Notes: generated from the sequence alone by a model not told the origin. A stretch of DNA of 64,000 nt from Nanobdellota archaeon (GCA_016931175.1 JAFGFH010000011.1:2854-66853), one strand, 5' to 3'; shown: positions 2,296 to 63,608, numbered from the stretch's first letter. Numbers and translations are program-made.

Positions 2296-3065
2296 GTAAG
2301 GAACTTAAAGAAACAGTAAATGATGTTAAAAAAGAATATAGTAATTTAGACTTAGATAAGAGGTTGTTTGAAAGATTTAACGAATTAGTTCATAAAAAAT
2401 TTAACAAATATTTTAAGAAATACTTTGACTTGGATGATAAGAAGTTCATAAACAAGATTAACAGGGATTATGCTGAAAGGAATAAGGAGGCTTACGGTCC
2501 TGATTGGGAAGAGAAAGTTGGTGAAAAGTTCATAAAAGCCAATAATAAGTTCCCAACGCACGTTGTTAAGACAATAAAATCCATTAATAAGCGTGATTAC
2601 GATTTCATTATCTGCATATTAAGAGGCGCGCTGCCTTACACAATGCTCTTTGAAATCTTCGGCTGGAAGGGCAGGATAAAGTATGTTATTTGCGGAAGGA
2701 AGAAAGGGCAAAATTGGACGTTTAAGAAGGAAGAGGTTCGTTATGACGAGATTGAAGACTTGTCAGTGCTGAAAGGCAAAAAAGTCTTATTAGTAGAGAA
2801 CAATATTGCAACTGCCAAGACTCCTTTAAGAGTATTTGAAGAACTAAAAAATAGGCATGGTGTTGAAAGCGCAGACTTGTTCATTGATTACATTGCTCCT
2901 TTGTACGATCCTAAGATTAAATCTTACGTGCCTGCTTTGGTCACAACTAATCCGGGAATACTGAAACCTTTTAACAAGAGAATAATTGCTTTAAACACTA
3001 AAGTAAGCAGTGAAGAAGATACTCAAATTAAGAAAGAGTTATTAGAAAAACTTAATCTCGTCTGA
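2292..3065 (+). CDS. phosphoribosyltransferase-like protein (type I PRT fold, degenerate PRPP loop)
   Basis: 'KKVLLVENNIATAKTP' resembles the PRPP-binding loop VLLVDDxxxTGxT, but with DD->EN and TG->TA. The start overlaps the hisS stop by 4 nt (ATGA). Confidence 0.4.
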   Translation: MSKELKETVNDVKKEYSNLDLDKRLFERFNELVHKKFNKYFKKYFDLDDKKFINKINRDYAERNKEAYGPDWEEKVGEKFIKANNKFPTHVVKTIKSINKRDYDFIICILRGALPYTMLFEIFGWKGRIKYVICGRKKGQNWTFKKEEVRYDEIEDLSVLKGKKVLLVENNIATAKTPLRVFEELKNRHGVESADLFIDYIAPLYDPKIKSYVPALVTTNPGILKPFNKRIIALNTKVSSEEDTQIKKELLEKLNLV

Positions 3066-8961: not shown

Positions 8962-9036
8962 GTTCTGGGTCGTCCAGTTTGGTTAGGATAGTAGGTTGTG
9001 GCCCTGCTGACCTGGGTTCAAATCCCAGCCCAGAAC
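8962..9036 (+). tRNA. tRNA-His (anticodon GTG) with genome-encoded G-1
   Basis: Cloverleaf folded by eye. G-1 (8962) is followed by acceptor TTCTGGG/CCCAGAA. D stem GTCC/GGAT. Anticodon stem GTAGG/CCTGC with loop TTGTGGC. T arm CTGGG-TTCAAAT-CCCAG. Discriminator C (9036) can pair with G-1. CCA is not fully encoded. Confidence 0.9.
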
Positions 9037-9038
9037 CA

Positions 9039-43445: not shown

Positions 43446-43567
43446 TGGTGGGGCTGCGAGGATTTGAACCCCGATTTACTGGTTTCTTCAACGACGCAAA
43501 GCGCCTCAGCGCTCCACCAAAACATGTTGCTGGAGCCAGTTGCCCTGCCAGGTTAGACGACAGCCCC
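43446..43567 (-). tRNA. tRNA-Trp (anticodon CCA) with 46-nt intron at 37/38 (intron 43484..43529); CCA encoded
   Basis: Acceptor GGGGCTG/CAGCCCC, discriminator A, CCA encoded. D stem GTCT/GGGC (two G-U pairs) with A14, G18, G19 and A21. Anticodon stem ACTGG/CCAGT with loop CTCCAG|intron|A. T arm CGGGG-TTCAAAT-CCTCG. Mature length 76 nt. Confidence 0.88.
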
Positions 43568-43678: not shown

Positions 43679-45235
43679 ATGAACGAAGAACAACTGCATA
43701 AAAATGCATTATACTCATTAAATGGATCTATTGCTGATGCGAGAACGCAGTTAAGACGGCAGGGTGAAAAAGAGTTGCCTAATTACGTTGACGACTTTGA
43801 GCATTACATTATTGAAAAAGAAGGGCAAAGACTCTTGTTATACCCTACCGGCTTTTACGAATGCAGCGATGGAAATAACCGCGTCGCGGGAGTGTGCTTG
43901 GCTTATCACAAAGGAGGAGGCTTCATAATCGGAGGGTTTGTGTATGATGATAAAGAATTACTGGCCAGTCCAATAAAACACCCCTGCCATGCAGGAGGAG
44001 AATTCGGAGAGATTGGCATGCTAATGACTATTAGAAACTTAATGACTTACCTGCACCCGAATCTAAGACTATCTGCACCTTTCCAAGTTATACCTCATAT
44101 TAATAATGCTGTACAGGAGAGCGCTATGAGTAAAGGATTTACAATTAACGCCTTCAGGGAAGAACAAGAGTCAATACTAGAATTATCACTTAACAAATAC
44201 TTAGATAATTATTTAGCAATCAAAAAAGAAGGGAGTGATATTAGCAGAGGATTAATGTTTGACATACTGGGCAATTTCGTTAATTACGTTAACATCATAG
44301 GTGAAGAAGCGCTTGAAAGACTAGTAGACAACGTATCAGAGCCAGTATTCATGCCAATACTTGACGCCTTATGCGATGAGCAATTTACGGAAACAGGTTA
44401 CCCTATACTCAGCAGTTTCATAATTAAATCAGGAACGAAAATATTAAACAATCTCTTAAAAAACCAACCAAGAAGTGCAGTAAAAGAATTATACAAGTAT
44501 CACGTAACAATAGACGGCGAGCTATTTATACAATTTAAAAAATCTGAAAACCCCTCACTAAACGGGGCAATAAAATACTTATCCTTAAATGATTTGATAA
44601 ACAACCTTTCAAATTTTGAAGCAAAGATGATTAAAAAACTTGACTTGAACAATTACGGGGAAAAGTATAATAATCTTATTTGTGACGGATTAGGTTCTAT
44701 TCCTGAATCAATAACTAGACTGGTTAACTTAGAAGAATTAAGATTAAACAGGAATCCATTATTCAAATTCCCGGAAGAGATACTTGAATTAAAGAATTTA
44801 AAGTCTTTAATGATACAGAATATTAATATAAACGCATTACCTGAACGTATATACTTGTTATCAAAACTTGAAGATTTAACTATATCTAACAATAATTTAA
44901 AGTGCTTGCCTGAATCATTTTGGAACCTGAAAAATCTGAAAATATTAGATATAGTTGAAAATGAAATAAAGTCCATACCAGAAAGTATCAGAAACCTTGC
45001 AAATCTAAAACAATTATTTATAGGCAGCAACCCTCTCACTAATGTTCCGGAAGATATTGGTAATCTTTCAAAACTAGAATTTATCAGCATGCTTGGATTA
45101 AAAATAGAGGCAGTGCCGGATAGTATTATAAACAATTTTAGTACACCTGCTATTGAATGCCACTGGTACCGCAATGACTCTAAATCATTAAAAGAGTTCA
45201 ATTCTTTCATGATAAAACAGATCAAAGACAGATAA
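43679..45235 (+). CDS. leucine-rich repeat (LRR) protein with unknown ~330-aa N-terminal domain
   Basis: About seven 23-aa repeats of LxxLxxLxLxxNxLxxLPxxIxxL (e.g. 'LVNLEELRLNRNPLFKFPEEILE', 'LKNLKILDIVENEIKSIPESIRN'). No signal peptide or TM. Confidence 0.8.
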   Translation: MNEEQLHKNALYSLNGSIADARTQLRRQGEKELPNYVDDFEHYIIEKEGQRLLLYPTGFYECSDGNNRVAGVCLAYHKGGGFIIGGFVYDDKELLASPIKHPCHAGGEFGEIGMLMTIRNLMTYLHPNLRLSAPFQVIPHINNAVQESAMSKGFTINAFREEQESILELSLNKYLDNYLAIKKEGSDISRGLMFDILGNFVNYVNIIGEEALERLVDNVSEPVFMPILDALCDEQFTETGYPILSSFIIKSGTKILNNLLKNQPRSAVKELYKYHVTIDGELFIQFKKSENPSLNGAIKYLSLNDLINNLSNFEAKMIKKLDLNNYGEKYNNLICDGLGSIPESITRLVNLEELRLNRNPLFKFPEEILELKNLKSLMIQNININALPERIYLLSKLEDLTISNNNLKCLPESFWNLKNLKILDIVENEIKSIPESIRNLANLKQLFIGSNPLTNVPEDIGNLSKLEFISMLGLKIEAVPDSIINNFSTPAIECHWYRNDSKSLKEFNSFMIKQIKDR

Positions 45236-49210: not shown

Positions 49211-50716
49211 TTATTGTATTGTGAATATTCTTCTTAACTGCAAAACTTTCCTGGCCCTGTCAAGCTTCTCTTTGCTCTCCGCGTGAATCCTCATCAACAA
49301 GTCCCCTTTCACAACACTGTCTGATAATTTAGCCTTCACGAAGACACCAGCTCCCTTATTATAAGGAGCGCCTGCAGCTCGGGCGCAGCTTGACAAAGCC
49401 TTATTATTAATTAAAGAAACAATTCCCGGATTCTCAGCCAAGACGTCAAACGTGTACTCTCCAACCTTAATATCCTCAAGCTTAACATCAGGGTCTCCTC
49501 CCTGAGCCTTAACAATGCGCTTGAACTGTTCATAAGCCTTGCCGCTGGCAAGTATCTCCCGCGCCATTTCAGAACCCTTGCCAACTGCTGCTTTGCCTGC
49601 AATCTCAAGCATGAAACCAGAGAATAAAATGCATTTTTCAATAAAATCTTTAGGCGCACTCTCATCATTGGTTAAAACCTTTAAAACGTCACGAGCTTCT
49701 AAAGCCGGGCCGACGCCGTTGCCGCAAGGCTGGCTCCCATTGCTTTCAATAGCATAAACTTTGACGCCTAATTTTTCACCTAACCTAGTGAAGGATTCAA
49801 CCAAGTCTGCAGCGTCTTCATGGCTTGGAACCTTAGTGCCTGGACCCATAGGCAAGTCTATAACAATATGAGTTGAGCCTACACTAATCTTCTTAGCCAT
49901 TATACTCGCAAGCAGTTGGCCTTCAGGGTCAATGCTTAAAGGCTTCTCAACCTTGATTATCTTATCATCAGCAGGCGCCAGGTTAAAACTGCCTCCCCAC
50001 ACCATGCAGCCTCCAACTTTTCTAACAATATTTTCAATCTTTCTCTTGGATAAAGTTACAGGAGCAAAGACTTCCATAGTATCCGCGGTTCCTGCAGGAC
50101 TAGTAATCGCTCTAGAACTAGTCTTAGGAATCTTCAAACCTGCGCTTGAAACAATAGGAATCATAACCATAGTAACCCTGTTGCCTGGAACTCCGCCAAT
50201 ACTGTGCTTGTCAAACACGGGCCCGTCGCCAATATTAAGCCTCTCACCAGTGTCAACCATTGCCTTAGTCAAATAATAAGTCTCTTCCATACTCAAGCCT
50301 TCACAGTAAGAAGCTGTTATGAACGCGGTGAGTTCAACGTCGTTCAAAGCATCATGAACTATGTCATTAACTATTGCTCTTAACTCTTCCTCGTTCAACT
50401 CTTCACCTTCAAGTTTTGCTCTTATGAAATCGAAACTCGCTGGTTTAGGCACGCCTTCAATAGAAACCTTCTTCCCTCTAACTAATCCTAAAGCATCCCA
50501 AGGCTCCACGAACAAGCCAATCTCTCCCTTTTTAATAGTAGTCCTGGTTAAATCAATACTGCAGATAACTTTCTTCTTACCATACTTAACCAATATTCTA
50601 TCCAAGTGCTTCAAATCCCTGTCCTTAGCCTCTTCAGTATTAAGAACAGCAATCTTAATTCCCGCAGTCTCAAAAGGAACTCTTACAACCTTTAACAAAT
50701 CATTCTTCATAACCAT
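49211..50716 (-). CDS. deoA: AMP phosphorylase (thymidine phosphorylase family, archaeal DeoA type)
   Basis: About 500 aa with an extra N-terminal domain. 'DKHSIGGVPGNRVTM' (compare TP 'HSTGGVGD') and 'TSSRAITSPAGTADTME'. Confidence 0.8.
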   Translation of the reverse strand: MVMKNDLLKVVRVPFETAGIKIAVLNTEEAKDRDLKHLDRILVKYGKKKVICSIDLTRTTIKKGEIGLFVEPWDALGLVRGKKVSIEGVPKPASFDFIRAKLEGEELNEEELRAIVNDIVHDALNDVELTAFITASYCEGLSMEETYYLTKAMVDTGERLNIGDGPVFDKHSIGGVPGNRVTMVMIPIVSSAGLKIPKTSSRAITSPAGTADTMEVFAPVTLSKRKIENIVRKVGGCMVWGGSFNLAPADDKIIKVEKPLSIDPEGQLLASIMAKKISVGSTHIVIDLPMGPGTKVPSHEDAADLVESFTRLGEKLGVKVYAIESNGSQPCGNGVGPALEARDVLKVLTNDESAPKDFIEKCILFSGFMLEIAGKAAVGKGSEMAREILASGKAYEQFKRIVKAQGGDPDVKLEDIKVGEYTFDVLAENPGIVSLINNKALSSCARAAGAPYNKGAGVFVKAKLSDSVVKGDLLMRIHAESKEKLDRARKVLQLRRIFTIQ

Positions 50717-51613: not shown

Positions 51614-52237
51614 ATGAAAGCAGACCTTCACGTTCACACAGAATACTCTCCCTGCTCCAAGACAAAGATTAAGGATGTATTAATCGCAGCAGTTAAAGCA
51701 GGATTGGATACTATTGCAGTAACCGACCATAACACTATCAAAGGTGCATTATTGACTAAGAAGTTGAGCAAAGATGTTAAAGTAATAATAGGCTGCGAGA
51801 AGAAGTGCGAGTACGGGGAATTGTTAATCTATGGTTTGAAGAAGGAGATTAAATCCAAAAAATTCACAGGTATTATTAAAGAAGCGCGAAAACAAGGGGC
51901 TAAAATCTTCATCAGCCACCCAATTGATTACGCGAGATTCCCGAACATGTGGAAGAAATTAAATGATGAAGTGTTTAAGCTAGTTGACGGTGTAGAATTA
52001 TACAACGGCAGGAACCTCTTCAATAAAAGAGTTAAAAGAATAGCAGAAAATAAAAAATTGGCTGGTGTTGCAGGAAGCGACGCTCACTACAGTGAAGAGT
52101 TAGGGAATACTTACGTGATTTACAAAAAAGACTTATGGAAAGAAGTGATAAGCAATAAAGCGAGTTATTACCATAATAACAATGTCTTAAACAAGTTGAA
52201 ATACTTATTGAAGAGCTTCCTGCTTAAATGGTTCTAA
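51614..52237 (+). CDS. PHP-domain metal-dependent phosphoesterase
   Basis: 'ADLHVHTEYS', 'IAVTDHN', 'ISHP' and 'GSDAH' His/Asp motifs. Confidence 0.8.
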   Translation: MKADLHVHTEYSPCSKTKIKDVLIAAVKAGLDTIAVTDHNTIKGALLTKKLSKDVKVIIGCEKKCEYGELLIYGLKKEIKSKKFTGIIKEARKQGAKIFISHPIDYARFPNMWKKLNDEVFKLVDGVELYNGRNLFNKRVKRIAENKKLAGVAGSDAHYSEELGNTYVIYKKDLWKEVISNKASYYHNNNVLNKLKYLLKSFLLKWF

Positions 52238-52638
52238 ACAATCCCGAATGTCAGCTTCTTGTCAAGTACGTAATTAACAGACAAGCCAAGTATTAATACC
52301 AAGACTTTGCTGACAATTGTTGAAAAGTTGAAAAAGTCAACGAATATGAAGAGCATGACCTCAGTCACTATTGTATAAACCATTAAGACTATTAATGAAT
52401 ACGTGTATTGTTTTCTGACCTTGCTGCTCTTGTTTTTGAAAGTGAATCTCTTATTAATCAGGAACTTAACGGTTGATGCGAGCCATACAGAAAAGAGGTG
52501 CGCGATTAAATAAGAGACTCCTAATATTATATTAAGAAGATAGTAAGCTCCGATGTCAACAAAAGCGCATAAACCTCCGACAAAGGCATAAACTATGAAC
52601 TCTCTTTTCATGAAATACTTAACAAGATTCATAATCAT
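52234..52638 (-). CDS. GtrA-family membrane protein
   Basis: 134 aa with 4 TM segments. 'FVGGLCAFVDIGAYYLL' and 'FLINKRFTFKN'. Confidence 0.75.
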   Translation of the reverse strand: MIMNLVKYFMKREFIVYAFVGGLCAFVDIGAYYLLNIILGVSYLIAHLFSVWLASTVKFLINKRFTFKNKSSKVRKQYTYSLIVLMVYTIVTEVMLFIFVDFFNFSTIVSKVLVLILGLSVNYVLDKKLTFGIV

Positions 52639-52714
52639 ATTTGTCGCTCCTTGTTATTTAAAATCTTATTATTTGAAAGGGTTTTTAAAACTTAAACAAT
52701 TTCTTTAAAATCAT

Positions 52715-54166
52715 ATGAAAATAACCAAGAAGAAGAAATATTACGAATTAGACCTGAATCTCAGCAAGGCGCAAATAATCACATTAATACTCGCTGCTAT
52801 GAGTCTTTTAATTAACTTGTTCTACTTCTCTGCGAATACTGGAGTGTGGTGGGATGAGGCCGAGTATTTAAGCTTCGTTAATCACATAGTTAAGGGAAGC
52901 GGTTACTCTATGTGGGAGGGAAGAGCAATACTTTACCCTTTAATATTGTCAGTATTTGGTTTCATAAGCACGAGCGGGTTTTTCCTTAGAATAATACTCG
53001 TATTAATCAGCTGCGCAACAGTAGTATTAACATTTCTGGTAATAAACGCGTTGTTCAAGGAAAAAATAGCAATAATAGCAACACTGTTATTCTTAACAAA
53101 TAATTTGTTCAACTTCTTCTCCATAAGATTCCTGACAGGAATACCTAGTTTGTTATTCATTTTATTGGGTGTTTTCTTCTTTCTGAAAAATAATACTAGA
53201 AACAGGTTATACGCCGGACTATTCATAGGTGTCGCTGTAGCAATGAGATTCACAAGCGTCTTCATAATACCTGCTTTAATACTGCACGACTTATTATCAA
53301 AAAGTGATATTAAAAAATATGTCTGGATTCCTGCGATTCTTTTAGGTTTCGTACCAACAGGAGTATTTGATTTAATAAACGGCAACCTTCCTTGGACAAC
53401 CCTTTACACTTTCTTCACGCAGAGCACTATGCAGAGAGAGTGGGGCATGAATTTAGGAGACTGGACTTATTACTTAACAAGTTCTCCTCACATAATGGGT
53501 GTTTTTACTGTAATATTTTTCATAATAGGAGGGATTGTATTATTGTCAAAATTAAAATCAAACCTTAATAAGAATATTTTATTCATAAGTTGTTTCATAA
53601 TACTTCACTTATTATCTTACAGTTTCCTGACTCCTTTAAAAGAGGAGAGGTATATGATTCCAGCATTGCCTTTCATTTTTTCAATAGCAGCAGCAGGTAT
53701 TGTTTCAATAAGCGCGACCATTTCAAAGTCCTTGAAAAAAACTATTAAAACACCTCATTTGAAGAGTATAATAAACGGAATCTTTATTCTAATAATTGCT
53801 TACGGTTCATTAAGTTCAGGTTATACCATGATTAACCAGTTGGGAAGCAGTTACAGCGCATTAGGTGAAGCAGGTAATTACTTGAAAACAATAACTGCGA
53901 ATGATGAGATAATAATAACTAATGCAGGACCTCACACTGCTTATTATACTGAGAGAAAAGTTGCGGGTTTTCCTGATAATATGAGCGCGCTTTACGAATT
54001 ACTAGACTCTAATCCTAAGATTAATTTCTTATTCTTCAGCTTTTATGAAACACTTCCTAATTACATGCAGGAATTCGTTAACAACACCAGGTTTAATGTT
54101 GTTAGTAGTTACGCTTCTCCTGATAATGCTCCAATAGTTGTTGTTCTTAAATACTTACGTGAATAA
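52715..54166 (+). CDS. GT-C fold glycosyltransferase (GT39/ArnT/PMT_2-like)
   Basis: Polytopic, 483 aa. The first loop contains 'WWDEAEYLSF' (acidic motif), and a soluble C-terminal domain follows. Confidence 0.7.
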   Translation: MKITKKKKYYELDLNLSKAQIITLILAAMSLLINLFYFSANTGVWWDEAEYLSFVNHIVKGSGYSMWEGRAILYPLILSVFGFISTSGFFLRIILVLISCATVVLTFLVINALFKEKIAIIATLLFLTNNLFNFFSIRFLTGIPSLLFILLGVFFFLKNNTRNRLYAGLFIGVAVAMRFTSVFIIPALILHDLLSKSDIKKYVWIPAILLGFVPTGVFDLINGNLPWTTLYTFFTQSTMQREWGMNLGDWTYYLTSSPHIMGVFTVIFFIIGGIVLLSKLKSNLNKNILFISCFIILHLLSYSFLTPLKEERYMIPALPFIFSIAAAGIVSISATISKSLKKTIKTPHLKSIINGIFILIIAYGSLSSGYTMINQLGSSYSALGEAGNYLKTITANDEIIITNAGPHTAYYTERKVAGFPDNMSALYELLDSNPKINFLFFSFYETLPNYMQEFVNNTRFNVVSSYASPDNAPIVVVLKYLRE

Positions 54167-55066
54167 TACTATAAGCAGCCATGTTATGCAGAATAAGAGT
54201 CCTGAGATTGTGAAGTTTTTCTTTTTAGAAAAAACTTCTTCCGGTCTTTTCACAACGCTCTCCTTGTCTTTAAGGAAGCTCTTATACCAGTACATTTCAA
54301 TAAAGAACCAAGGTCCTATAAGGAAGAGGTTCTTGTTGAAAATGTTGGCAAAGAAGTAATAACCTAGTATGCTGAGCGTTAAGTAAACATTAATAGACAC
54401 GTGAAGTGATTTATCATTGTAATACTTGAATACTTTCCTGACCTTTGCTGCTTTCCTGCCTAGAAAATTATACTCTGCTAAACGCTTGCATGACAAAAGG
54501 AATCCTGCTATGAAGAAAGGGAATAATATTACAATCTTATAAACCTGCAAGTCAGTTACAGAGTACCAACCTATTATAACTCTTAATGAAAAGTTTAAAC
54601 CCGCGCTGAAGACGTCAAGCAAAGGCAGGTCTTTTAATCTCAAAGGTTTAAAACTGTATATTAAATTGTTTAAAAGCATTAATAACAAGACAAAAACCAG
54701 CCATGGCTTGATTAAGTATATTATAATTAAAGAGGCTGATAATAAAAGAACTGCAAGAATCAATCCCTGCTTAATGCTTATCTTGCCGCTAGCTATTGGC
54801 CTGTTCTTCTTAATAGGGTGCATCCTGTCTTTTTCAACGTCTGCTATATCATTAAAAATGTAAATAGTTGAAGACAATAATGAAACTGCTAAGAACGCGA
54901 GTATTAAATTAAGTATGGAAATAGTGAATAATCCCTGCTCGTAGATGACAACGCTCGCTCCGAATAATAAGCTGAAGCTCTTAAACCATTGCTGGGGCCG
55001 CATTAGCTTAAACAATTCCTTAAAATTAATCAAGACATTTAATACCTCTCGAATATTTTGCCCCAA
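54155..55066 (-). CDS. UbiA-superfamily prenyl-phosphate transferase (resembles decaprenyl-phosphate phosphoribosyltransferase type)
   Basis: 'FNDIADVEKDRMHPIKKNRPIASG' first Asp-rich motif. Polytopic. Confidence 0.7.
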   Translation of the reverse strand: MGQNIREVLNVLINFKELFKLMRPQQWFKSFSLLFGASVVIYEQGLFTISILNLILAFLAVSLLSSTIYIFNDIADVEKDRMHPIKKNRPIASGKISIKQGLILAVLLLSASLIIIYLIKPWLVFVLLLMLLNNLIYSFKPLRLKDLPLLDVFSAGLNFSLRVIIGWYSVTDLQVYKIVILFPFFIAGFLLSCKRLAEYNFLGRKAAKVRKVFKYYNDKSLHVSINVYLTLSILGYYFFANIFNKNLFLIGPWFFIEMYWYKSFLKDKESVVKRPEEVFSKKKNFTISGLLFCITWLLIVLFT

Positions 55067-56121
55067 TCAGATTTCATGAATTCATTAACTCTCGGTTTTC
55101 CAATTAACGGGTACCAGAAATAGTCGTGGTATAACGCGCTTCCAAGTATTGGAATTTTAAACAAAGGAGTGTGAAATAATAATCCCTCAAATAATGGTAA
55201 TTTCTTCCTAAGCATTTGGTCCCAGAAAACCACTAAACTCTTGCCTGTCTTGAAATTGTAATTAATTTTTTTAATATTAACCCCTTCAATGTCTAAGCTG
55301 TCAACGTCCCCGCAACCCAAACCTTTGTCATGAGCTATTTTAATAAAAGGTATTTTTAACGGGTCAAAACCCATCATTTTAGCACTGACTGCGTCAACCG
55401 CTACCTGGTCAGCGCTCGCGAGTATGTAATTCTTCTCATGCCAAGTCATTGTTCTGGGGCCCGCGCCGTTGCCGCATATTGTACCATCTGTTACTGAAAA
55501 TATTCCAGGATGTATCTCTTTTTGGATAGTAAGCAAGTCTACGAGAACCTCGTGAATAACCTTGTGCGAGTGGTGCCTTCTTTCGGTGATTAACCCTCCG
55601 AAAGCATTCTTCATAGCTCCAGTAATAGTTGTGTGCCCGTGGGTTTTCTGCGTCGGCAAGTGCACAACGTTTTTCCCAATAAACATTTTGGGAATCTTAT
55701 GAGTATGGTTGAATAATTCATTTAATACGAGCATCTCGTGTTTCGGCTCGTACTTAACCCATTCAACCTCTGTTAAAGGCTTGAATTCGAGATTGTATTT
55801 CTTAAGAACTGGCAGCCACTTGTTCTGCAATGCTCCTTTCCAGGGATTGGTTACAACAGTCTTATTCTCAACAGGTATTAGATTAGTGTAACCGTCCTTG
55901 GTTAACTTGTTAATAACAGCGTCTAACTGCCAAGGAGGTGTTGAACAGGCAGGGTAGAACAAACTCCATGACAAGTTAATCTTAATAACAGTTTCATTTT
56001 TTTTCTTCAGGAACTTCTTATAATCTGCTAAGTCCATTAGTTTAGAATAATCTTTCATGTAAGTCTTGGGTGACGTTTTAAGTACTGCAACTTTGCTCTT
56101 GCTCATCTCTGCTTCTCCCAA
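55039..56121 (-). CDS. DUF362-domain protein (likely true start 56106, ATGA-coupled)
   Basis: 'LPTQKTHGHTTITGAMKNAFGG' is a DUF362-like core. ATG 56106 overlaps the upstream stop by 4 nt. Confidence 0.6.
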   Translation of the reverse strand: MGEAEMSKSKVAVLKTSPKTYMKDYSKLMDLADYKKFLKKKNETVIKINLSWSLFYPACSTPPWQLDAVINKLTKDGYTNLIPVENKTVVTNPWKGALQNKWLPVLKKYNLEFKPLTEVEWVKYEPKHEMLVLNELFNHTHKIPKMFIGKNVVHLPTQKTHGHTTITGAMKNAFGGLITERRHHSHKVIHEVLVDLLTIQKEIHPGIFSVTDGTICGNGAGPRTMTWHEKNYILASADQVAVDAVSAKMMGFDPLKIPFIKIAHDKGLGCGDVDSLDIEGVNIKKINYNFKTGKSLVVFWDQMLRKKLPLFEGLLFHTPLFKIPILGSALYHDYFWYPLIGKPRVNEFMKSDWGKIFERY

Positions 56122-57374
56122 TACTTTGATTTCTTAATCACTGGTTCTTGTATCATGTAATCCATGTTATAATATATTTTGCTGTTTATTATGCTGTTGT
56201 TGTCCACGTTCAGGAAAGGCCAAAGTCTAGTATTATAGAGTATTTGAGAATTGGCTCCTATAAGGCAGGAGTAGCCTATCATTGCCTGCTCTTCAACCCT
56301 GTTATTCTCAAGGATTATGCAGTCTCCGTCGATTAAAGCCCTTGTTATCTTAACATTATCCTTGGTCTTAACGTTTTCAAAGATTATTGAACCGCTTATA
56401 TTATTATTCTTGCCTATCTCAGCATCTCTTAATATAGTAGTGTAAGGGTTTATGATGGTTCCCTGGCCTATCATAGTATTCTCTCCTATTATGCAAGGGC
56501 CTATTATTATAACATCATCTCCTAAGACGCAGCCTTTTCGTATGATAACCTTTCCTGAAACCTTGATATTGTTGCCTAACTTAACACTCTTATCCGTGTG
56601 CCTCTCAATCATGTCAAGCGCTTTATGATTAATCTCAACGTAATAGTCTGGTTTCCCAACATCGCCCCAGTAGCCTGAGAACTTGTAACCATATATTCTA
56701 AGCTTGTCCGAGTAGTAAGCCCACAAGTCCCCAATATTGTCAGGTTTCCTGCCCTCCAATCTTTCTTTCTTAACATATTCTGGAAGCTCTTTCTTCAAGA
56801 ACTCCTTGTTAACTATGTAAATAAAGGTTGAGGCCAGCATTGAAAGAGACTCTTCAACCTTTGGCTTCTCCTGGAACTGGATTATCCTGCTGTCCTTGTT
56901 CAAAACTCCTATTCCAAACCTGGAAACCTTTGTAATATCAGTGAGTTCAAAAAGAGCTATTGTAACATCGGCTTTCTTATTCTTATGATGCTCCATTAAT
57001 TTCTTGTAATCCAATCCCTGCGTGTAATTATCAGCCCCAACGATTATGCAGTCGTCAGCGCCTGCCTTCTTAACCACTTCAAGCAATGCACCTATCGCGC
57101 CTAACTTGTCAGAGTCTTCTTTGGACTCTTCAAAATCGTACCTTATCTTAAGCCCTGTGTATTGCGAATCTATAAATTCTTTAACCTTTACCTGGTTCTT
57201 GTTTAGTGAAATTACTGCCTCGTTAACACCTACTCTCTCTAATTGCTTGAGAATACTAATTAGTGCGGTTGTGTCACCTATTGGAAGAACACACTTCGGA
57301 GTTCTTAATGTTAAAGGCTGCAGTCTAGTCCCGTAACCTCCTGCCATTATAATCGCCTTCATATTAAAATTCAA
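56103..57374 (-). CDS. sugar-1-phosphate nucleotidyltransferase with C-terminal left-handed beta-helix (GlmU/ST0452-like)
   Basis: 'AIIMAGGYGTRLQPLT' and C-terminal hexapeptide repeats ('IIGPCIIGENTMIGQGTIIN'). Confidence 0.8.
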   Translation of the reverse strand: MNFNMKAIIMAGGYGTRLQPLTLRTPKCVLPIGDTTALISILKQLERVGVNEAVISLNKNQVKVKEFIDSQYTGLKIRYDFEESKEDSDKLGAIGALLEVVKKAGADDCIIVGADNYTQGLDYKKLMEHHKNKKADVTIALFELTDITKVSRFGIGVLNKDSRIIQFQEKPKVEESLSMLASTFIYIVNKEFLKKELPEYVKKERLEGRKPDNIGDLWAYYSDKLRIYGYKFSGYWGDVGKPDYYVEINHKALDMIERHTDKSVKLGNNIKVSGKVIIRKGCVLGDDVIIIGPCIIGENTMIGQGTIINPYTTILRDAEIGKNNNISGSIIFENVKTKDNVKITRALIDGDCIILENNRVEEQAMIGYSCLIGANSQILYNTRLWPFLNVDNNSIINSKIYYNMDYMIQEPVIKKSKYWEKQR

Positions 57375-57386
57375 CCCGTTTCTATT

Positions 57387-58724
57387 TTATAAAAACTTCC
57401 TTACTAATTTGGAATACTCATCAAAATACTTGTTTAGAGATGTTTTATTGCTGGCTTCAACCGTTAACCTTATAACTGTTTCAGTGTTGCTCGGCCTTAT
57501 AAGAACCCAGTCCGTATCGTTTAAGAAAATCTTTACGCCGTCAACAGTGTTTGCATCATTTTTTTTGCACAATTCTTGTTTAATTTTTTCAAAGGCTTCA
57601 AACTTGTGCTCGTGGTCTTTTGCCTGAAACTTGGCATGCTTTATGGGATAATCAGGCAGTTCCTTAACCATTGCTGAAAAAGGTTTATCACTATCTGATA
57701 AAATCTTTGCAAGCTTCGCGCAAGCAAGTATCCCGTCACTGAACGGGTAAAAGTCGTTAAAATGGAAGTGGCAGCTGACCTCTGCGCCGAACATTCCCTT
57801 ATTATCTATCAAGCCGTGGGACAAACTGGTTAAACCAACAGGGCACCATACAATATTTCCTTGATTCTCTTCAACAACTTTTTTCAAAACACTGCTCATG
57901 TCAACGCTTGCAACTATGTAAGCGTATTTGAATTCTTTCAAAACCTCTCTTGCGAAAAAACAAGCCATCCTGCTGCCGTCAACAAATTTTCCTTTATCAT
58001 CAACGAATACGCACCTGTCTCCGTCTCCGTCGAACGCGCATCCGAAGTCAGCCTTAGCTTCAACAACTCTTTTCTGAAGAAAACCGAGATTCTCTTCTTT
58101 AGGCTCCGGTTTCCTGTTAGGAAAGTGGCCGTCAGGTTCAGCGCTGATGTTAATAACCTCGCAGCCCATTTCTTCAAAGAGTTTAGTTGCAGCAAAACCT
58201 GTTGTTCCGTTGCCGTAGTCGAGGACTATTTTCAAACTTTTGCTTAGTTTAATCTTATCCTTAATATTGTCAACGTATTCTCTTACTGCGTTATCATCGG
58301 TCTCTACTAGTCCAATCTCATCCCACTCAGCGCGGTCGAATTCTTTTTTCAAAAACTTTTCTTCAATCCTTCTAAGCCTGTCATTATAAACAACTCCCCT
58401 CTTGTCATAGAATTTTAAACCGTTAGTATCAGATGAAGTATGGCTGCCGGTAATGGTTACGTTCTCAACCTGGTGTTTTACGCCGTAAAAGTTTGAGACT
58501 GGTGTTGGAACAACTCCTATGTCAACGATGCTGCAGCCTGAAGCTGAGAATCCTGCCAGGAAAGAGTTCTTTAATATTTCAGAACTGGTTCTGACATCTC
58601 TTGCAATGCTAGCCTTTTGTTTTATAAGATTAGCATAGCATGAAGCAATAACGACAACGTCTTCTGGAAGAAGCTCTTTGTTAAAAACTCCCCTTACATC
58701 ATATGATTTGAAAGGGTTCATCAT
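57387..58724 (-). CDS. alpha-D-phosphohexomutase family protein with non-canonical phosphoserine loop
   Basis: 'AFDGDGDR' Mg loop and 'IRPSNTETVIRL' phosphate loop. The active-site loop is 'TITGSHTSSDTNG' instead of TASHNP. Confidence 0.75.
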   Translation of the reverse strand: MMNPFKSYDVRGVFNKELLPEDVVVIASCYANLIKQKASIARDVRTSSEILKNSFLAGFSASGCSIVDIGVVPTPVSNFYGVKHQVENVTITGSHTSSDTNGLKFYDKRGVVYNDRLRRIEEKFLKKEFDRAEWDEIGLVETDDNAVREYVDNIKDKIKLSKSLKIVLDYGNGTTGFAATKLFEEMGCEVINISAEPDGHFPNRKPEPKEENLGFLQKRVVEAKADFGCAFDGDGDRCVFVDDKGKFVDGSRMACFFAREVLKEFKYAYIVASVDMSSVLKKVVEENQGNIVWCPVGLTSLSHGLIDNKGMFGAEVSCHFHFNDFYPFSDGILACAKLAKILSDSDKPFSAMVKELPDYPIKHAKFQAKDHEHKFEAFEKIKQELCKKNDANTVDGVKIFLNDTDWVLIRPSNTETVIRLTVEASNKTSLNKYFDEYSKLVRKFL

Positions 58725-58797: not shown

Positions 58798-60132
58798 TTA
58801 ATAGATGAGTTTTAGAATCTTTTTTTTCTTCTCTTCCATTAATTCTTTGCTGTCTGCTTCAAGGTTTAACCGTATCAAGGGTTCAGTGTTTGATTTCCTT
58901 AGATTAAACCACCAGTCTTTGAATTCAACGGTTATGCCGTCCAAATGAGTTGTTTTTCCATTCTTGTAAGCGTTCTCAATTCTTGCAATAACAGCGTCTT
59001 TGTCTTTCACTTCCCTGTTAATTTCTCCAGTGTGATAGTATTTCTTGAAGCTCTTGATAAGTTCTGAGAGTTTCTTCTTCTCTGATGATAATAAAGAGAG
59101 TATTATAACCACTGGTATTGCTGCTGAGTCTGTGAAGAAGTTGTCTTTGAAATAGTAGTGCCCGCTCATCTCCCCGGCGAAGAGCACGTCTTCTTTTTTC
59201 ATACGAGTCTTTATGAACGAGTGCCCGACTCTTGAAACTAAGGGTTTGCCTCCAGAGTCTTCAATAACTTTTTTCACTGACTTTGTTGAGCGCAGATCAT
59301 ACATTATCTTTGCACCTTTATTCTTATTTAACATTTTTTTTGCAATGAGCGCAGTTGTTATGTCTCCAGGTATTCTCTCTCCTTTCTCGTCCACCATTAC
59401 TACCCTGTCAACGTCTCCGTCGAATGCGAATCCTATGTCTGCTTTTTCTTTCACTACTCTTTTCTGCAGGTCTTTCATGTTCTCTTCATCGAATGGGTTG
59501 GCGTCATGGTTTGGGAACGTGCCGTCTAATTCCTCATACATTGGGATTAGTTTAATATTGAATGATTCAAGCAAGGGTATTATTGTCTTACCTGCCATGC
59601 CGTTCCCGCAGTCAATAACTACTTTAAGCTCTTTAATATTGTTAGCGAATGATTTAACATAGCTGACGTATTTTTCCAGAACATTTTCAGTTTTTAATGA
59701 GCCTTTTTCTTCAGCATCTTTGAAGTCTCTTGCTTCAACCATCTTCTCTATCTCTTTAATTCCAGTGTCAGCGTTTAAAGGAACTGCTTTCGATTTTACC
59801 ATTTTCAAGCCGTTGTATTTTCCAGGGTTGTGCGATGCTGTTATCATTAGTCCAGCGTCTGCTTCTAATTCGTTCACTGCGTAGTAGAACATTGGCGTGC
59901 TTGACAATCCAATATCTATAATTTCGGCTCCTTGTTCAAGCAAGGCTTCTGTTAATGCGTTGAACAAGCTGGGCGAGCTAATTCTCATATCCCTTGCAAC
60001 AACTACTTTCCTGCATCTTATGAAGTCCATGAAGGCTTTGCCTATTCTGTATATTATTTTCTCGTTAATCTCTGAAGGGTATAATCCTCTTATGTCATAT
60101 GCTTGGAAGATGCTCAATCTACTCCTCTCCAT
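58798..60132 (-). CDS. phosphomannomutase/phosphoglucomutase (or phosphoglucosamine mutase)
   Basis: Canonical 'ITASHNPGKYNG', 'AFDGDVDR', 'GEMSGHYYF' and 'LRKSNTEPLIRL'. Confidence 0.85.
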   Translation of the reverse strand: MERSRLSIFQAYDIRGLYPSEINEKIIYRIGKAFMDFIRCRKVVVARDMRISSPSLFNALTEALLEQGAEIIDIGLSSTPMFYYAVNELEADAGLMITASHNPGKYNGLKMVKSKAVPLNADTGIKEIEKMVEARDFKDAEEKGSLKTENVLEKYVSYVKSFANNIKELKVVIDCGNGMAGKTIIPLLESFNIKLIPMYEELDGTFPNHDANPFDEENMKDLQKRVVKEKADIGFAFDGDVDRVVMVDEKGERIPGDITTALIAKKMLNKNKGAKIMYDLRSTKSVKKVIEDSGGKPLVSRVGHSFIKTRMKKEDVLFAGEMSGHYYFKDNFFTDSAAIPVVIILSLLSSEKKKLSELIKSFKKYYHTGEINREVKDKDAVIARIENAYKNGKTTHLDGITVEFKDWWFNLRKSNTEPLIRLNLEADSKELMEEKKKKILKLIY

Positions 60133-60974
60133 TCCTTAATCGCTGCCTCGTACTCGTCAGGTGTGCCTGCGGGAAGCCACTGGCCTCCCATGACGTAGCC
60201 GTAGAATTGCTTGTCAGCGATTAGTTTCGGAAAGACTTCCGTCTCTATCATGGAAAAGATTTTGTCAGGAACGTAATCAAAGATTTTTGGCGAGAACAAG
60301 TATACTCCCGCGTTTATCAAATTGCTCGGCGCTTGTTCAATCTTCGGCTTCTCTATGAACTCGAGTATCTTGCTGCCTTTCAGTTTTGCAACGCCGTATC
60401 TTGTCGGGTCGCTCACTGATGCTAGTGCAATGGTTGCTATGGCATCGTTCTCGAAGTGGGCTCTTATCATGTCGTACAAGTCAAGGTTGAAGAGATTGTC
60501 GCCGTTTATCATCACGAAGTGGTTGTTTTCAAGCAAGGGTTTTGCCATTAATAACGGGCCTGATGTGCCTCTTGCTTCCTTCTCCTCAACGTATGTTATC
60601 TTCACCCCAAACTTGCTTCCGTTGCCGAAGTGCTCCCTAATCTTGTCTCCCAAGAATCCTATGGATATTATTATGTCACGTATCTCGTACTTCTTTAAAA
60701 CTTCAATAGTATGCTCTAGCAAGGGCCTGCCTTGTATTGGAACCATTGGCTTAGGTATCTCATAAGTGATTGGCCTGAGCCTTGTTCCCTTTCCTCCTGC
60801 GAGAATGAAAGCCTTCTTAACGCGTTTCTCACCTAATGCTTTTGCTAGGAGCAGTTCTACAGCGTGGCTCCTGTTTCGCACCTTGTTGCCGTCTATGGTT
60901 GCGTCAACAGAGTTGATTATGTTCTTATCCAAAGTAAGAGAAACCCGCTCCCTATGTATCATAACGTAATACAA
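60114..60974 (-). CDS. ribbon-helix-helix (CopG/NikR-like) domain fused to sugar-phosphate nucleotidyltransferase
   Basis: N-terminus 'RVSLTLDKNIINSVDATIDGNKVRNRSHAVELLLAKAL', then 'AFILAGGKGTRLRPIT...PKPMVPI'. Confidence 0.75.
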   Translation of the reverse strand: MYYVMIHRERVSLTLDKNIINSVDATIDGNKVRNRSHAVELLLAKALGEKRVKKAFILAGGKGTRLRPITYEIPKPMVPIQGRPLLEHTIEVLKKYEIRDIIISIGFLGDKIREHFGNGSKFGVKITYVEEKEARGTSGPLLMAKPLLENNHFVMINGDNLFNLDLYDMIRAHFENDAIATIALASVSDPTRYGVAKLKGSKILEFIEKPKIEQAPSNLINAGVYLFSPKIFDYVPDKIFSMIETEVFPKLIADKQFYGYVMGGQWLPAGTPDEYEAAIKEWRGVD

Positions 60975-61847: not shown

Positions 61848-62621
61848 TTATTTGTTCAACTCTTCAACGTCTTTCTTGGTGTGAACGTTCCTCCACTTCC
61901 CAGTAAAGATAAACCCGCCGAGATTATTCATAGCAATAAGTTTCGGGATTAACTCGTTCTCTACCGACGCGTAATCATAGTATAAGACCTCAGGCTCGCA
62001 GACCATTATCCCTGTCCACACTAAGTAACTATTGCTCTTCTTCGGCTTCTGCTGGAAACCAACAACACTGCCTCCCTGCAGTTCAACCACCCCTAATCTT
62101 GTGGGATTAGTTGAAGCAGTGATAGCCAAATCAACAAGTTTACCATTCCTGGAATGATAGTTCCAGAAAGAATCCAAGTCGGTCTCAAAAAAATTATCAG
62201 CAGGCAAGACAAGAAAGGTTGAATTAATCTTGTTCTTCAAAAGAGACAAAGACTTAGCGCTGCCTGCAGGCTTAGAATCCTCAACGTACTCAATGCTTAA
62301 CAAGTAATCCTGGCCAGTGCCTAAGAGCTCAAAGATTTTGGACAATGTATTCTTCTCCCCCACAATGAACAACTTCTTAAAATTATAAGACTGCAAAGCC
62401 TTCAAATTATGAAAAATCATGGGCTGGCCCTTAACAATAGACAAAATCCTGAAAGGCTCAATCCTGGTAGCAAGAATAACAGCAACCCTGTTATTGCTCA
62501 AACCCCTGCTAATCAAATGCTCAATAGCCTGAGAGCGGTTCCTGACATTAATCCCGTCAATGTAAGAATCCAAACCCTTAAGCAATGACTCTTCAACAGT
62601 TATTGAAATCTTCTGCTTCAT
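61848..62621 (-). CDS. ribbon-helix-helix domain fused to nucleotidyltransferase-like domain lacking the GGxGTR signature
   Basis: N-terminus 'KISITVEESLLKGLDSYIDGINVRNRSQAIEHLISRGL'. It then reads 'AVILATRIEPFRIL' where the paralog has 'AFILAGGKGTRLRPIT'. The rest aligns by eye with 60114..60974. Confidence 0.65.
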   Translation of the reverse strand: MKQKISITVEESLLKGLDSYIDGINVRNRSQAIEHLISRGLSNNRVAVILATRIEPFRILSIVKGQPMIFHNLKALQSYNFKKLFIVGEKNTLSKIFELLGTGQDYLLSIEYVEDSKPAGSAKSLSLLKNKINSTFLVLPADNFFETDLDSFWNYHSRNGKLVDLAITASTNPTRLGVVELQGGSVVGFQQKPKKSNSYLVWTGIMVCEPEVLYYDYASVENELIPKLIAMNNLGGFIFTGKWRNVHTKKDVEELNK

Positions 62622-62657: not shown

Positions 62658-63608
62658 TTGTGGATAAGTAAAGAGTTGATGAAGGTATTAATAACAGGAG
62701 GAGCAGGCTTCCTCGGAAGCAACCTGTGCAGATTATTCCTTGAAAATGGGCATGAGGTTATATGCCTGGACAACCTCGGCAGCGGCAGCTTGTCAAACGT
62801 GGAGCCTTTAATGAAAAACAAGAACTTCAAATTATTAAACGCTGACGTCACGCAGGACTTATGGGAGATGGACAAGGTTGATTTAATACTTCACTTCGCG
62901 AGCAGGGCGAGCCCGAACGATTACCAGACCAACTCATTCGAGACAATGACTGCGAACAGCAACGGCACATTTAACCTCTTAAAAAAAGCTCATAAAGACA
63001 AGGCAGTATTCTTATTCGCGAGCACGAGCGAGGTATACGGGCAGGCTAGCGTGTTCCCAACACCTGAAACTTATTACGGTTACGTTAACAGCTTCGGTCC
63101 GAGAAGCTGCTATGATGAGAGCAAGAGATTCGGCGAAACCTTGTGCTACGAGTTCATCCACAAGTTCGACGTTGACGCGAGGATAGTAAGAATCTTCAAC
63201 ACTTACGGTCCTGGCATGAGATATAATGACGGCAGAGTAGTCACTAACTTCATACACCAGGCTTTGAACAATGAAGACATAACTGTTTACGGGGACGGGA
63301 AACAGACAAGGAGCTTCTGCTTCGTTGATGACTTAACAAGAGGAATATACGATTTTGCAACAAGGCAGGGATTGAAAGGAGAGGTAATAAACCTGGGAAA
63401 CCCTGTTGAGAACACTATGCTGGAATTAGCAGACAAGATAATAAAGATAACCAAGAGCAAATCAAAGATAGTGTATAAGCCTTTGCCAAAAGACGACCCT
63501 GTCAGGAGAGTGCCGGATATTACAAAGGCAAATAAATTACTGGACTGGCAGCCGAAGTTTTCACTAGATGAAGGTTTGCGAATATTAGTGGAGTGGTTCA
63601 GGAAATGA
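62658..63608 (+). CDS. uxs: UDP-glucuronate decarboxylase / UDP-xylose synthase-type SDR (likely true start ATG 62679)
   Basis: 'VLITGGAGFLGSNL', 'YDESKRFGETL' and 'RIFNTYGP'. The track start is a TTG, and an ATG (MKVLITGG) lies 7 codons in. Confidence 0.75.
   Translation: MWISKELMKVLITGGAGFLGSNLCRLFLENGHEVICLDNLGSGSLSNVEPLMKNKNFKLLNADVTQDLWEMDKVDLILHFASRASPNDYQTNSFETMTANSNGTFNLLKKAHKDKAVFLFASTSEVYGQASVFPTPETYYGYVNSFGPRSCYDESKRFGETLCYEFIHKFDVDARIVRIFNTYGPGMRYNDGRVVTNFIHQALNNEDITVYGDGKQTRSFCFVDDLTRGIYDFATRQGLKGEVINLGNPVENTMLELADKIIKITKSKSKIVYKPLPKDDPVRRVPDITKANKLLDWQPKFSLDEGLRILVEWFRK

Follow-up and report, generated by a model that had tools for sequence, protein, structure and literature searches.

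In a 64-kb window of archaeal DNA (the whole stretch analyzed here, with coordinates counted from its first letter), we identified a gene module that probably encodes a DPANN-type, 5-phosphoribosyl pyrophosphate (PRPP)-dependent route to a lipid-linked pentofuranose donor, a judgment that covers its UbiA and GT-C steps jointly. The DNA derives from a sediment metagenome, its nearest named relative is Candidatus Tiddalikarchaeum (Nanobdellota, DPANN), and it encodes the archaeal markers TFIIB, NucS, and an archaeal ThrRS editing domain. The module contains a UbiA-superfamily protein, which its sequence suggests is best read as a polyprenyl-phosphate 5-phosphoribosyltransferase (PPPRS) of the mycobacterial Rv3806c type rather than as a prenyltransferase, together with a GT-C glycosyltransferase, a GtrA-family protein, a PHP phosphoesterase, and a DUF362 protein (Table 1). 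Our literature search found neither an archaeal description of a PRPP-derived lipid-linked pentofuranose pathway nor a paper joining DPANN, glycosylation, and UbiA.

The UbiA-family protein

The UbiA protein matches PF01040 over residues 39-265 in Pfam (98.4 bits versus a cutoff of 34.2), and its four best NCBIfam models are all of the decaprenyl-phosphate phosphoribose (DPPR)-synthase type, namely NF008977 (134 bits), NF006088 (126 bits), NF008978 (121 bits), and NF008976 (104 bits), one of them being the HAD-fused type typified by ORF15 of Citrobacter youngae. NCBIfam models of other classes gave 58 bits for ChlG, 47 bits for heme O synthase, 39 bits for 4-hydroxybenzoate prenyltransferase (UbiA), and 29-33 bits for digeranylgeranylglyceryl phosphate synthase (DGGGPS). 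Similarly, the best PDB sequence match is Rv3806c (8J8J; E=4e-22, 82 bits), with DGGGPS at 2e-5 and 27 bits. A first-pass annotation of the same DNA had noted an Rv3806c-like, Asp-rich motif in this protein and had proposed a profile check against the DPPR-synthase, DGGGPS, quinone, and heme classes. The string that it quoted, NDIADVEKDRMHPIKKNRPIASG, occurs verbatim in the protein, where it aligns with NDVRDVEADREHPTKRFRPIAAG of Rv3806c; the resemblance is borne out by the model scores, the best PDB match, and the conservation of ligand residues, and the profile check gave no grouping with DGGGPS or with the quinone/heme prenyltransferases.

In Rv3806c, Mg2+ is bound by N73 and D77, the 5'-phosphate of PRPP by K28 and Y70, the pyrophosphate by R22, K87, R90, Y138, and K143, and the lipid phosphate by K28 and K191, and its phosphoribose sites are unconserved in UbiA prenyltransferases (PMC10994848). 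We compared these positions in 47 archaeal UbiA neighbors of DUF362 orthologues, the window protein included. In Rv3806c numbering, the window protein retains R22, K28, Y70, N73, D74, D77, D81, K87, R90, Y138, K143, K191, and R192. The N and the three D residues of the NDxxDxxxD motif are present in all 47 proteins, as are R22, K28, Y70, K87, R90, and Y138; Lys143 is a lysine in 46 and an arginine in one; and both lipid-phosphate residues, Lys28 and Lys191, are kept throughout. Among the remaining positions, Tyr157 is a phenylalanine in the window protein and in most of its relatives, a change also found in some mycobacteria, and Lys208, which varies among the 47 proteins, is a lysine here.

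Partner genes and their conservation

The four open reading frames (ORFs) of the first-pass annotation (GtrA, GT-C, UbiA, and DUF362) lie precisely where it had placed them, and each passes its Pfam gathering score; the PHP phosphoesterase is a further module member that it had missed. The UbiA and GT-C genes are convergent, as claimed, with a 12-bp overlap of their 3' ends (54155-54166), an overlap also present in relatives of 62-66% UbiA identity (L001, 10874-10885). The ATGA coupling claimed for DUF362 and UbiA was assigned to the wrong junction, for DUF362 stops with a TAA at 55041-55039, the next ATG lies off the UbiA frame, and the true ATGA overlap joins the stop of the NTP-transferase gene to the DUF362 ATG at 56106. 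The likeliest UbiA start is a TTG at 55033, 5 nt after the DUF362 stop (6-9 nt in relatives), with an ATG at 55003 as the alternative, and the frame stays open up to 55066. Because of the ATGA overlap and the 5-nt gap, the nucleotidyltransferase, DUF362, and UbiA genes form a single tight string on the same strand.

To survey the neighborhood, a single-protein DUF362 scan of genome contigs, which returned only two close relatives, was replaced by an alignment-based metagenome scan, in which a DUF362 orthologue alignment retrieved 80 metagenomic loci (77 of them non-redundant) that we annotated with our own hidden Markov models. A PPPRS-type UbiA gene lies within 300 bp of DUF362 in 45 of the 77 loci and within 5 kb in 55. 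Flanks of no less than 1.5 kb on each side are available for 39 of the loci; of these well-flanked loci, 32 (82%) contain UbiA within 5 kb, 13 (33%) contain PHP, 8 contain a flippase-like gene, and at least 15 contain a GT-C gene, with UbiA or PHP present in 37. The GT-C counts are a lower bound, being based on a Pfam scan of 20 adjoining multi-pass ORFs, 9 of which have no family. The arrangement of the pair varies: UbiA precedes DUF362 on the same strand in 18 loci and follows it in 16, and the two genes diverge in 8 loci and converge in 3. Because four different gene orders occur, the pairing is kept through rearrangement and not merely inherited. Unbiased clustering of all neighbors returned the same families, plus general glycan genes encoding SDRs (short-chain dehydrogenases/reductases), GT2 and GT4 enzymes, and UDP-glucose dehydrogenase.

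Individual loci follow the same pattern. In relatives of 62-66% UbiA identity, the nucleotidyltransferase, DUF362, and UbiA genes run in one direction and converge on GT-C, a flippase-like gene (LPG_synthase_TM), and PHP, which run in the other. A locus with a UbiA homologue of 51% identity has GT-C and GtrA and has neither DUF362 nor PHP. At 33-34% identity, in unrelated lineages that include an Aenigmatarchaeota metagenome-assembled genome, DUF362, UbiA, and PHP adjoin in differing orientations. The GT-C neighbors of the DUF362-UbiA pair span the GT22/PMT_2-like, GT87, and YfhO families, as would be expected of a single donor-making module that serves diverse transferases. A Clostridium homologue (P0028) sits in a housekeeping-gene setting with no partner genes; therefore, the bacterial relatives closest in sequence do not share the module. 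As for the conserved co-localization on which the first-pass annotation had staked its four-gene module, the DUF362-UbiA association is very strong and GT-C recurs, but beyond the window, GtrA turned up in a single locus (L005).

In Halanaeroarchaeum sulfurireducens, the consecutive genes HLASA_2009-2013 begin with one for a PHP protein and one listed as a 'decaprenyl-phosphate phosphoribosyltransferase'; next come genes for a hypothetical protein of 140 aa, an NAD-dependent epimerase/dehydratase, and another hypothetical protein, of 432 aa. The region is described as phage-like or an island, and consecutive WP_ numbers also occur in Haloarcula amylolytica (PMC4866403). On this evidence, Halobacteria would also have the PHP-PPPRS pairing, and it may be mobile.

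The GT-C protein (483 aa, without a carbohydrate-binding module) contains an invariant WWDEAEY motif in its first external loop (W45, W46, D47, E48, A49, E50, and Y51). A PDB sequence search with it found nothing, and relatives were recovered by a fold search with its AlphaFold2 (AF2) model (predicted local distance difference test score, pLDDT, of 86), which Foldseek matched with probability 1.0 and TM-scores of 0.45-0.65 to ALG9, STT3/AglB/PglB, ArnT, Pmt4, AftA, AftB, AftD, and Emb. The fold assigned to this protein in the first-pass annotation is thereby confirmed, and, judged by its model and the invariant motif, the protein is a GT-C enzyme, with a presumed donor and acceptor.

The GtrA match to PF04138 is full length, well above the cutoff of 26.1. 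In the closest relatives, the GtrA slot between PHP and GT-C is occupied by a flippase-like LPG_synthase_TM gene, which exceeds the TIGR00374 cutoff and weakly matches MprF and the GlcN-PG flippase; this shared slot supports an equivalent role for the two. The PHP protein has as its best NCBIfam match the CehA/McbA metallohydrolase model (58 bits, under cutoff), with weak matches to ribose-phosphate esterases. One orthologous PHP cluster is present in 22 of the 77 DUF362 loci, frequently overlapping UbiA or DUF362. By analogy, PHP is a candidate functional analogue of Rv3807c or of the HAD PRP domain, and Pfam and NCBIfam scans of the module proteins gave no HAD, PAP2, or MATE matches.

DUF362, the proposed pathway, and its alternatives

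DUF362 orthologues are 54-80% identical across Woese-, Alti-, and Aenigmatarchaeota, and the median identity to the window protein is 61% for DUF362 versus 31% for UbiA and 36% for PHP, making DUF362 about twice as conserved as its partners. Its invariant residues include Lys159, His161, His163, Lys171, Arg182, His183, His184, His186, His204, Asp212, His264, Asp265, His332, and Asp333. Analysis of its C-terminal helices for hydrophobicity and amphipathicity found no transmembrane-grade segment (maximum Kyte-Doolittle value of 1.25). With its AF2 model (pLDDT 89.8), the nine best Foldseek matches belong to the LarA family (probability 0.96-1.0), as do all matches at E<0.01. A Pfam scan of the protein reported PF04015 alone, with no match to DUF2088, the N-terminal family of LarA; the two families share Pfam clan CL0471 (PMC11770544). 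LarA binds its nickel-pincer nucleotide (NPN) cofactor through R75, K184, and H200 and uses H108 and H174 in catalysis (PMC11770544); in DUF362, His161-x9-Lys171, followed 12-15 residues on by His183/His184/His186, resembles the LarA H174-x9-K184-x15-H200 arrangement by spacing only, the two being unaligned. By its modeled fold, DUF362 is structurally, if remotely, related to the LarA racemases/epimerases.

Two side observations concern DUF362 proteins elsewhere. First, at least 7 representative 50%-identity clusters (P0253, P0254, P0257, P0260, P0266, P0268, and P0272) have an intein (Intein_splicing, mostly with a LAGLIDADG endonuclease) that interrupts the invariant PTxK|THGH motif. The insertion site corresponds to K159|T160 (55645/55644) of the window protein, itself intein-free, and insertion exactly at this invariant motif marks the motif as a critical site. 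Second, in a Woesearchaeota locus (L012 6600-10020, JAAOYA010000008.1), the DUF362-UbiA pair has a second, divergent DUF362 paralogue (Npun_F2552-like) immediately upstream, and after this paralogue come genes for an amine-oxidase/phytoene-desaturase-like flavoprotein, a GT2 enzyme, and a DUF2304 protein; the locus also holds STT3/AglB and three GT9 genes, and a similar flavoprotein cluster recurs in 5 loci.

We found no paper giving DUF362 a function, the apparent mentions in two papers being of DUF3623 and DUF3627, and the wider family in other lineages often carries Fe-S domains and also carbohydrate-binding domains. On account of the fold, the conservation, these family links, and the haloarchaeal SDR epimerase beside PHP-PPPRS, we tentatively propose, as a speculative hypothesis to which we give less than even weight, that DUF362 is an epimerase-like, cofactor-dependent enzyme modifying the lipid-linked sugar. 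The broader proposition, that it represents a new LarA-related class of epimerases/oxidoreductases for lipid-linked ribofuranose, replacing DprE1/DprE2 or ORF13, and that many DPANN surfaces are decorated with pentofuranoses, is, on present evidence, rather unlikely.

In the proposed pathway, (i) the UbiA protein, as its sequence suggests, would join PRPP to a polyprenyl phosphate, the presumed lipid, giving polyprenyl-P-ribose-5-P; (ii) the PHP phosphoesterase would, from its gene context, take off the 5'-phosphate; (iii) DUF362 might alter the lipid-linked sugar, most plausibly by redox epimerization to another pentofuranose, a speculative step whose bacterial counterpart is DprE1/DprE2 or the SDR ORF13; (iv) GtrA, or the MprF-type flippase-like protein in relatives, would flip the donor over the membrane; and (v) the GT-C enzyme would move the pentofuranose onto a surface glycan, protein, or lipid. 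The upstream genes would supply nucleotide sugars, probably including UDP-N-acetylglucosamine, for the same surface glycan. What computation establishes is the enzyme type of UbiA and the GT-C fold; the nature of the carrier and of the acceptor is inferred, and so are the steps given to the phosphatase and the flippase.

Several observations weigh against this pathway. At the level of the UbiA protein, its best score of 134 bits is below the curated NCBIfam equivalog cutoff of 234, and because all of its scores are below the equivalog cutoffs, it represents a diverged clade that the curated bacterial equivalogs do not cover; further, the residue that contacts the ribose O3 in Rv3806c, Gln135, is an asparagine here and variable among the 47 proteins. 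The GT-C model is no nearer to the arabinofuranosyltransferases than to ALG9, oligosaccharyltransferase, or ArnT. PHP and the flippase-like gene occur within 5 kb in only about one-third and one-fifth, respectively, of the well-flanked loci, and two remoter DUF362 relatives (44% identity) have no adjoining UbiA, so the linkage cannot be generalized to PF04015 at large. The window encodes neither a PRPP synthase nor a DprE1/DprE2 homologue, a literature search found no pentofuranose reported in DPANN glycans, and a metatranscriptome of the same study contains no sampled words of this stretch and so gives no expression support. As to DUF362, its TM-scores with LarA are just 0.34-0.39, indicating remote similarity; PDB sequence and profile searches (including phmmer) found no match to any LarA chain or other solved structure; and the annotated neighborhoods that we viewed contain no LarB, LarC, or LarE genes. 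The epimerase role is weakened by this remoteness, by the lack of nearby genes for cofactor biosynthesis, and by a His/Asp-rich site that would suit a hydrolase as well.

That last point leads to the first alternative, an improbable one in our estimation, in which DUF362 would itself take the 5'-phosphate off the phosphoribose, or act as some other metal-dependent hydrolase, leaving PHP with an accessory job. Its invariant His and Asp residues, listed above, are metallohydrolase-like; in bacteria, the phosphatase is the component tied most closely to PPPRS (ORF15 of C. youngae is a fusion of the two, and in Mycobacterium tuberculosis they lie side by side), and DUF362 is the most constant neighbor of UbiA, with the pair found within 5 kb in 82% of loci versus 33% for PHP. 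On the other hand, PHP enzymes are established phosphoesterases, the sole structural relatives of DUF362 are LarA-type hydride-transfer isomerases and not hydrolases, and Fe-S domains are common in the wider DUF362 family. Moreover, the haloarchaeal PHP-PPPRS pair lacks DUF362 and has an SDR epimerase adjoining it instead (PMC4866403).

A second alternative concerns the product. The module might yield a modified membrane lipid. UbiA would then phosphoribosylate a lipid phosphate such as a polyprenyl phosphate or scavenged archaetidic acid, the head group would be processed by PHP and DUF362, and the MprF-type flippase or GtrA would expose the end product on the outer leaflet, while GT-C would adjoin these genes only by chance, as part of the glycan island around them. 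Scavenging of host lipids is general among DPANN archaea, the family of the flippase-like partner flips modified phospholipids (as its weak MprF and GlcN-PG flippase matches recall), and GT-C was detected in just 38-50% of the well-flanked loci. We nevertheless give this only a slim chance. We know of no lipid with a phosphoribosyl head group, and GT-C genes of several families directly adjoin the pair in many lineages, the window included. In addition, all characterized Rv3806c-type enzymes make a polyprenyl-P-ribose donor that is used by a GT-C enzyme (PMC11127046).

That UbiA is an ordinary archaeal prenyltransferase (for DGGGP, quinone, or heme) in a cluster of inherited synteny without functional coupling could be argued from the source annotation of many homologues as '4-hydroxybenzoate polyprenyltransferase' and from the flanking housekeeping genes (Trm5, AMP phosphorylase, S17e, and LeuRS) that the closest relatives also share, but this is hardly credible, being already contradicted by the UbiA scores (DGGGPS at 29-33 and UbiA/MenA-type models at no more than 39 bits, versus 134 for DPPR synthase), by the retention of PRPP-specific residues, and by a DUF362-UbiA pairing that survives at 25-35% UbiA identity in four gene orders, for which we estimate a chance adjacency of well below 1% (assuming a few UbiA genes per genome).

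The preferred reading, that of a PRPP-dependent route to a lipid-linked pentofuranose, would have several consequences. In mycobacteria, the route to PRPP-derived lipid-linked pentofuranoses is validated as a drug-target pathway; it was generalized to bacterial O-antigens only in 2024, and the window locus and about 60 related loci indicate a rebuilt version of it in ultra-small DPANN archaea, with PHP suggested as a third independent solution to 5'-dephosphorylation. It predicts unusual pentofuranose sugars on DPANN surfaces that mediate host attachment. DUF362, widespread and with no assigned function, is now tied to one specific, assayable biochemical step. If DUF362 is indeed an epimerase, this would be the first function for a large domain family and would bring archaea within the range of the pentofuranose pathway, and the relatives in Woese-, Aenigm-, and Altiarchaeota and Tiddalikarchaeales would carry PRPP-derived surface pentofuranoses, such as arabinofuranose or xylofuranose.

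The wider window and comparison with known systems

Upstream of the module lie sugar-activation genes that the first-pass annotation had, for the most part, described correctly, since both of its phosphohexomutases are present and its three or four nucleotidyltransferases correspond to three complete and one partial NTP-transferase gene. The GlmU-like nucleotidyltransferase next to DUF362 scores 166 bits with Arch_glmU, under cutoff, and has the same position in close relatives; the phosphohexomutases score 398 and 406 bits with Arch_GlmM and 485 bits with PMM/PGM. The gene labeled a UDP-xylose synthase (UXS) does not sustain that name, as it encodes an RmlB/UXS-like SDR under every curated cutoff (155 bits with the dTDP-glucose 4,6-dehydratase model and 106 bits with the UXS-type model). 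The other two nucleotidyltransferases, which are separated by two small ORFs without a Pfam family, carry N-terminal ribbon-helix-helix-like extensions of about 45-50 aa, with weak NikR N-terminal matches in the 61848-62621 protein and a weak RHH_1 match in its L005 relative. To judge from the sequence, these sugar-activating enzymes may thereby carry a fused domain for DNA binding or regulation.

Table 1. Features of the 64-kb window, with the module first, followed by the sugar-activation genes and the other loci
Feature	Coordinates	ORF	Strand	Evidence or description
PHP-family metal-dependent phosphoesterase, candidate 5'-phosphatase on polyprenyl-P-ribose-5-P	51614-52237		+	Pfam PHP 49, PHP_C 38 bits
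GtrA-family small membrane protein, candidate flippase of lipid-linked sugar	52234-52638	52234-52638	-	PF04138, 74.5 bits
GT-C glycosyltransferase, candidate extracytoplasmic pentofuranosyltransferase	52715-54166	52715-54166	+	Glyco_transf_22 2e-11, PMT_2 3e-8; fold match
UbiA-superfamily protein, best read as PPPRS (DPPR-synthase type)	54155-55033	54155-55066	-	PF01040, 98 bits; NCBIfam, PDB, residue conservation
DUF362 protein, 355 aa, soluble	55039-56106	55039-56121	-	PF04015, 84 bits; AF2; Foldseek; constant PPPRS partner
Sugar-1-phosphate nucleotidyltransferase with left-handed beta-helix (archaeal GlmU-like)	56103-57374		-	NTP_transferase 136 bits + LbH
Two phosphohexomutases, one GlmM-like, one PMM/PGM-like	57387-58724, 58798-60132		-	all four PGM_PMM domains each
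Two nucleotidyltransferases	60114-60974, 61848-62621		-	NTP_transferase 166 and 73.5 bits
SDR nucleotide-sugar dehydratase/decarboxylase (RmlB/UXS-like)	62658-63608		+	Epimerase 182, GDP_Man_Dehyd 170 bits
Protein with type-I phosphoribosyltransferase domain	2292-3065		+	257 aa; PF00156, 29 bits
tRNA-His	8963-9037		+	
Large ORF		20647-23493	+	948 aa
Large ORF		33092-34741	-	549 aa
Large ORF		34732-36888	-	718 aa
tRNA, probably intron-containing	43449-43567		-	Rfam, over 119 nt
Leucine-rich-repeat protein	43679-45235		+	518 aa; C-terminal LRR_14, LRR_8
AMP-phosphorylase-type gene	49211-50716		-	501 aa; Glycos_trans_3N, Glycos_transf_3, PYNP_C

Two further genes bear on pentose phosphates. The 257-aa protein has only a generic type-I phosphoribosyltransferase domain and is unrecognizable as a PRPP synthase. 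The AMP-phosphorylase-type gene lies two genes from the module; its position is kept in L001, L004, and L005, with the synteny absent in distant lineages. Characterized archaeal AMP phosphorylases produce ribose-1,5-bisphosphate, and a link of this gene to the pentose-phosphate supply for PPPRS is conceivable.

Elsewhere in the window, the leucine-rich-repeat protein, which is unusual for a small archaeal genome, has 350 N-terminal residues without a Pfam family. The three large ORFs are either Pfam-less or have a sub-threshold Ig-like match; the 948-aa one opens with Cys-rich, zinc-ribbon-like repeats, whereas the 549-aa and 718-aa ones begin with a hydrophobic, signal-like stretch and could be located on the surface, where they might be glycosylated. 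The probable intron-containing archaeal tRNA was unreported by ARAGORN.

We compared the module with four known systems. The LarA superfamily, which consists of NPN-dependent 2-hydroxyacid racemases/epimerases, resembles DUF362 in its clan, in providing the sole Foldseek matches at E<0.01, and in the His-x9-Lys spacing (PMC11770544), whereas DUF362 belongs to PF04015, has no sequence match to LarA structures and no NPN genes seen nearby, and would act on a lipid-linked sugar rather than on a 2-hydroxy acid. The Gtr system (GtrA, GtrB, and a Gtr* GT-C enzyme) likewise builds a polyprenyl-monophosphate sugar in the cytoplasm, flips it with a GtrA-family protein, and transfers the sugar outside the membrane with a GT-C enzyme; its donor synthase, GtrB, is, however, a GT2 enzyme using a UDP-sugar, in place of which the window has the UbiA-fold, predicted PRPP-dependent enzyme.

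The mycobacterial decaprenyl-phospho-ribose/arabinose pathway provides the closest solved structure, Rv3806c, with which the UbiA protein has nearly all substrate-binding residues in common (PMC10994848), as well as a GtrA-family protein (Rv3789-like) and GT-C transferases (Emb/Aft) as donor consumers. It differs in that the window lacks DprE1, DprE2, and a PAP2 phosphatase, that the UbiA protein is only an estimated ∼33% identical to Rv3806c over the aligned region, and that the window GT-C is not specifically Emb/Aft-like. The actinobacterial analogy drawn in the first-pass annotation is apt, but arabinose in particular is unsupported, as DprE1/DprE2 are missing.

Of the published frameworks, the nearest, which the first-pass annotation had not cited, is that of the three-component pentofuranose system of bacteria. 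In it, a PPPRS and its phosphatase are combined with a flippase and a GT-C enzyme, and optional epimerases turn lipid-linked ribose into arabinose (DprE1/E2) or xylose (SDR) (PMC11127046). In the Citrobacter youngae O1/O2 loci, these are ORF15 (PPPRS-PRP), ORF14 (a MATE flippase), ORF12 (a GT136 GT-C enzyme), and ORF13 (an SDR epimerase), and the framework is experimentally established in bacteria, to which the scope of that paper is restricted (PMC11127046). The window encodes UbiA, GtrA, and GT-C, that is, a PPPRS-type, a flippase-type, and a GT-C protein, within 3 kb, and relatives show the same combination built from different flippase-like and GT-C proteins. The two systems are alike in (i) a UbiA-fold, PRPP-dependent phosphoribosyltransferase (predicted in the window) with identical catalytic residues; (ii) a phosphatase, a flippase, and a GT-C enzyme (candidate roles in the window) co-encoded within a surface-glycan locus; and (iii) an optional or extra enzyme that would decide the identity of the pentose. 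They differ in that the window host is archaeal (DPANN), its candidate phosphatase is a separate PHP protein and not a fused HAD domain, its candidate flippase is GtrA or MprF-like and not MATE, its extra enzyme is DUF362 and not an SDR, and its lipid carrier is presumably dolichyl phosphate. Similarly, the bacterial GT-C belongs to GT136, whereas that of the window is GT22/PMT_2-like by Pfam and other loci have GT87 or YfhO proteins. By this analogy, the locus reads as a variant that follows the logic of a known system with non-homologous parts, namely PHP, GtrA or an MprF-like protein, a GT22/PMT_2-like GT-C enzyme, and DUF362.

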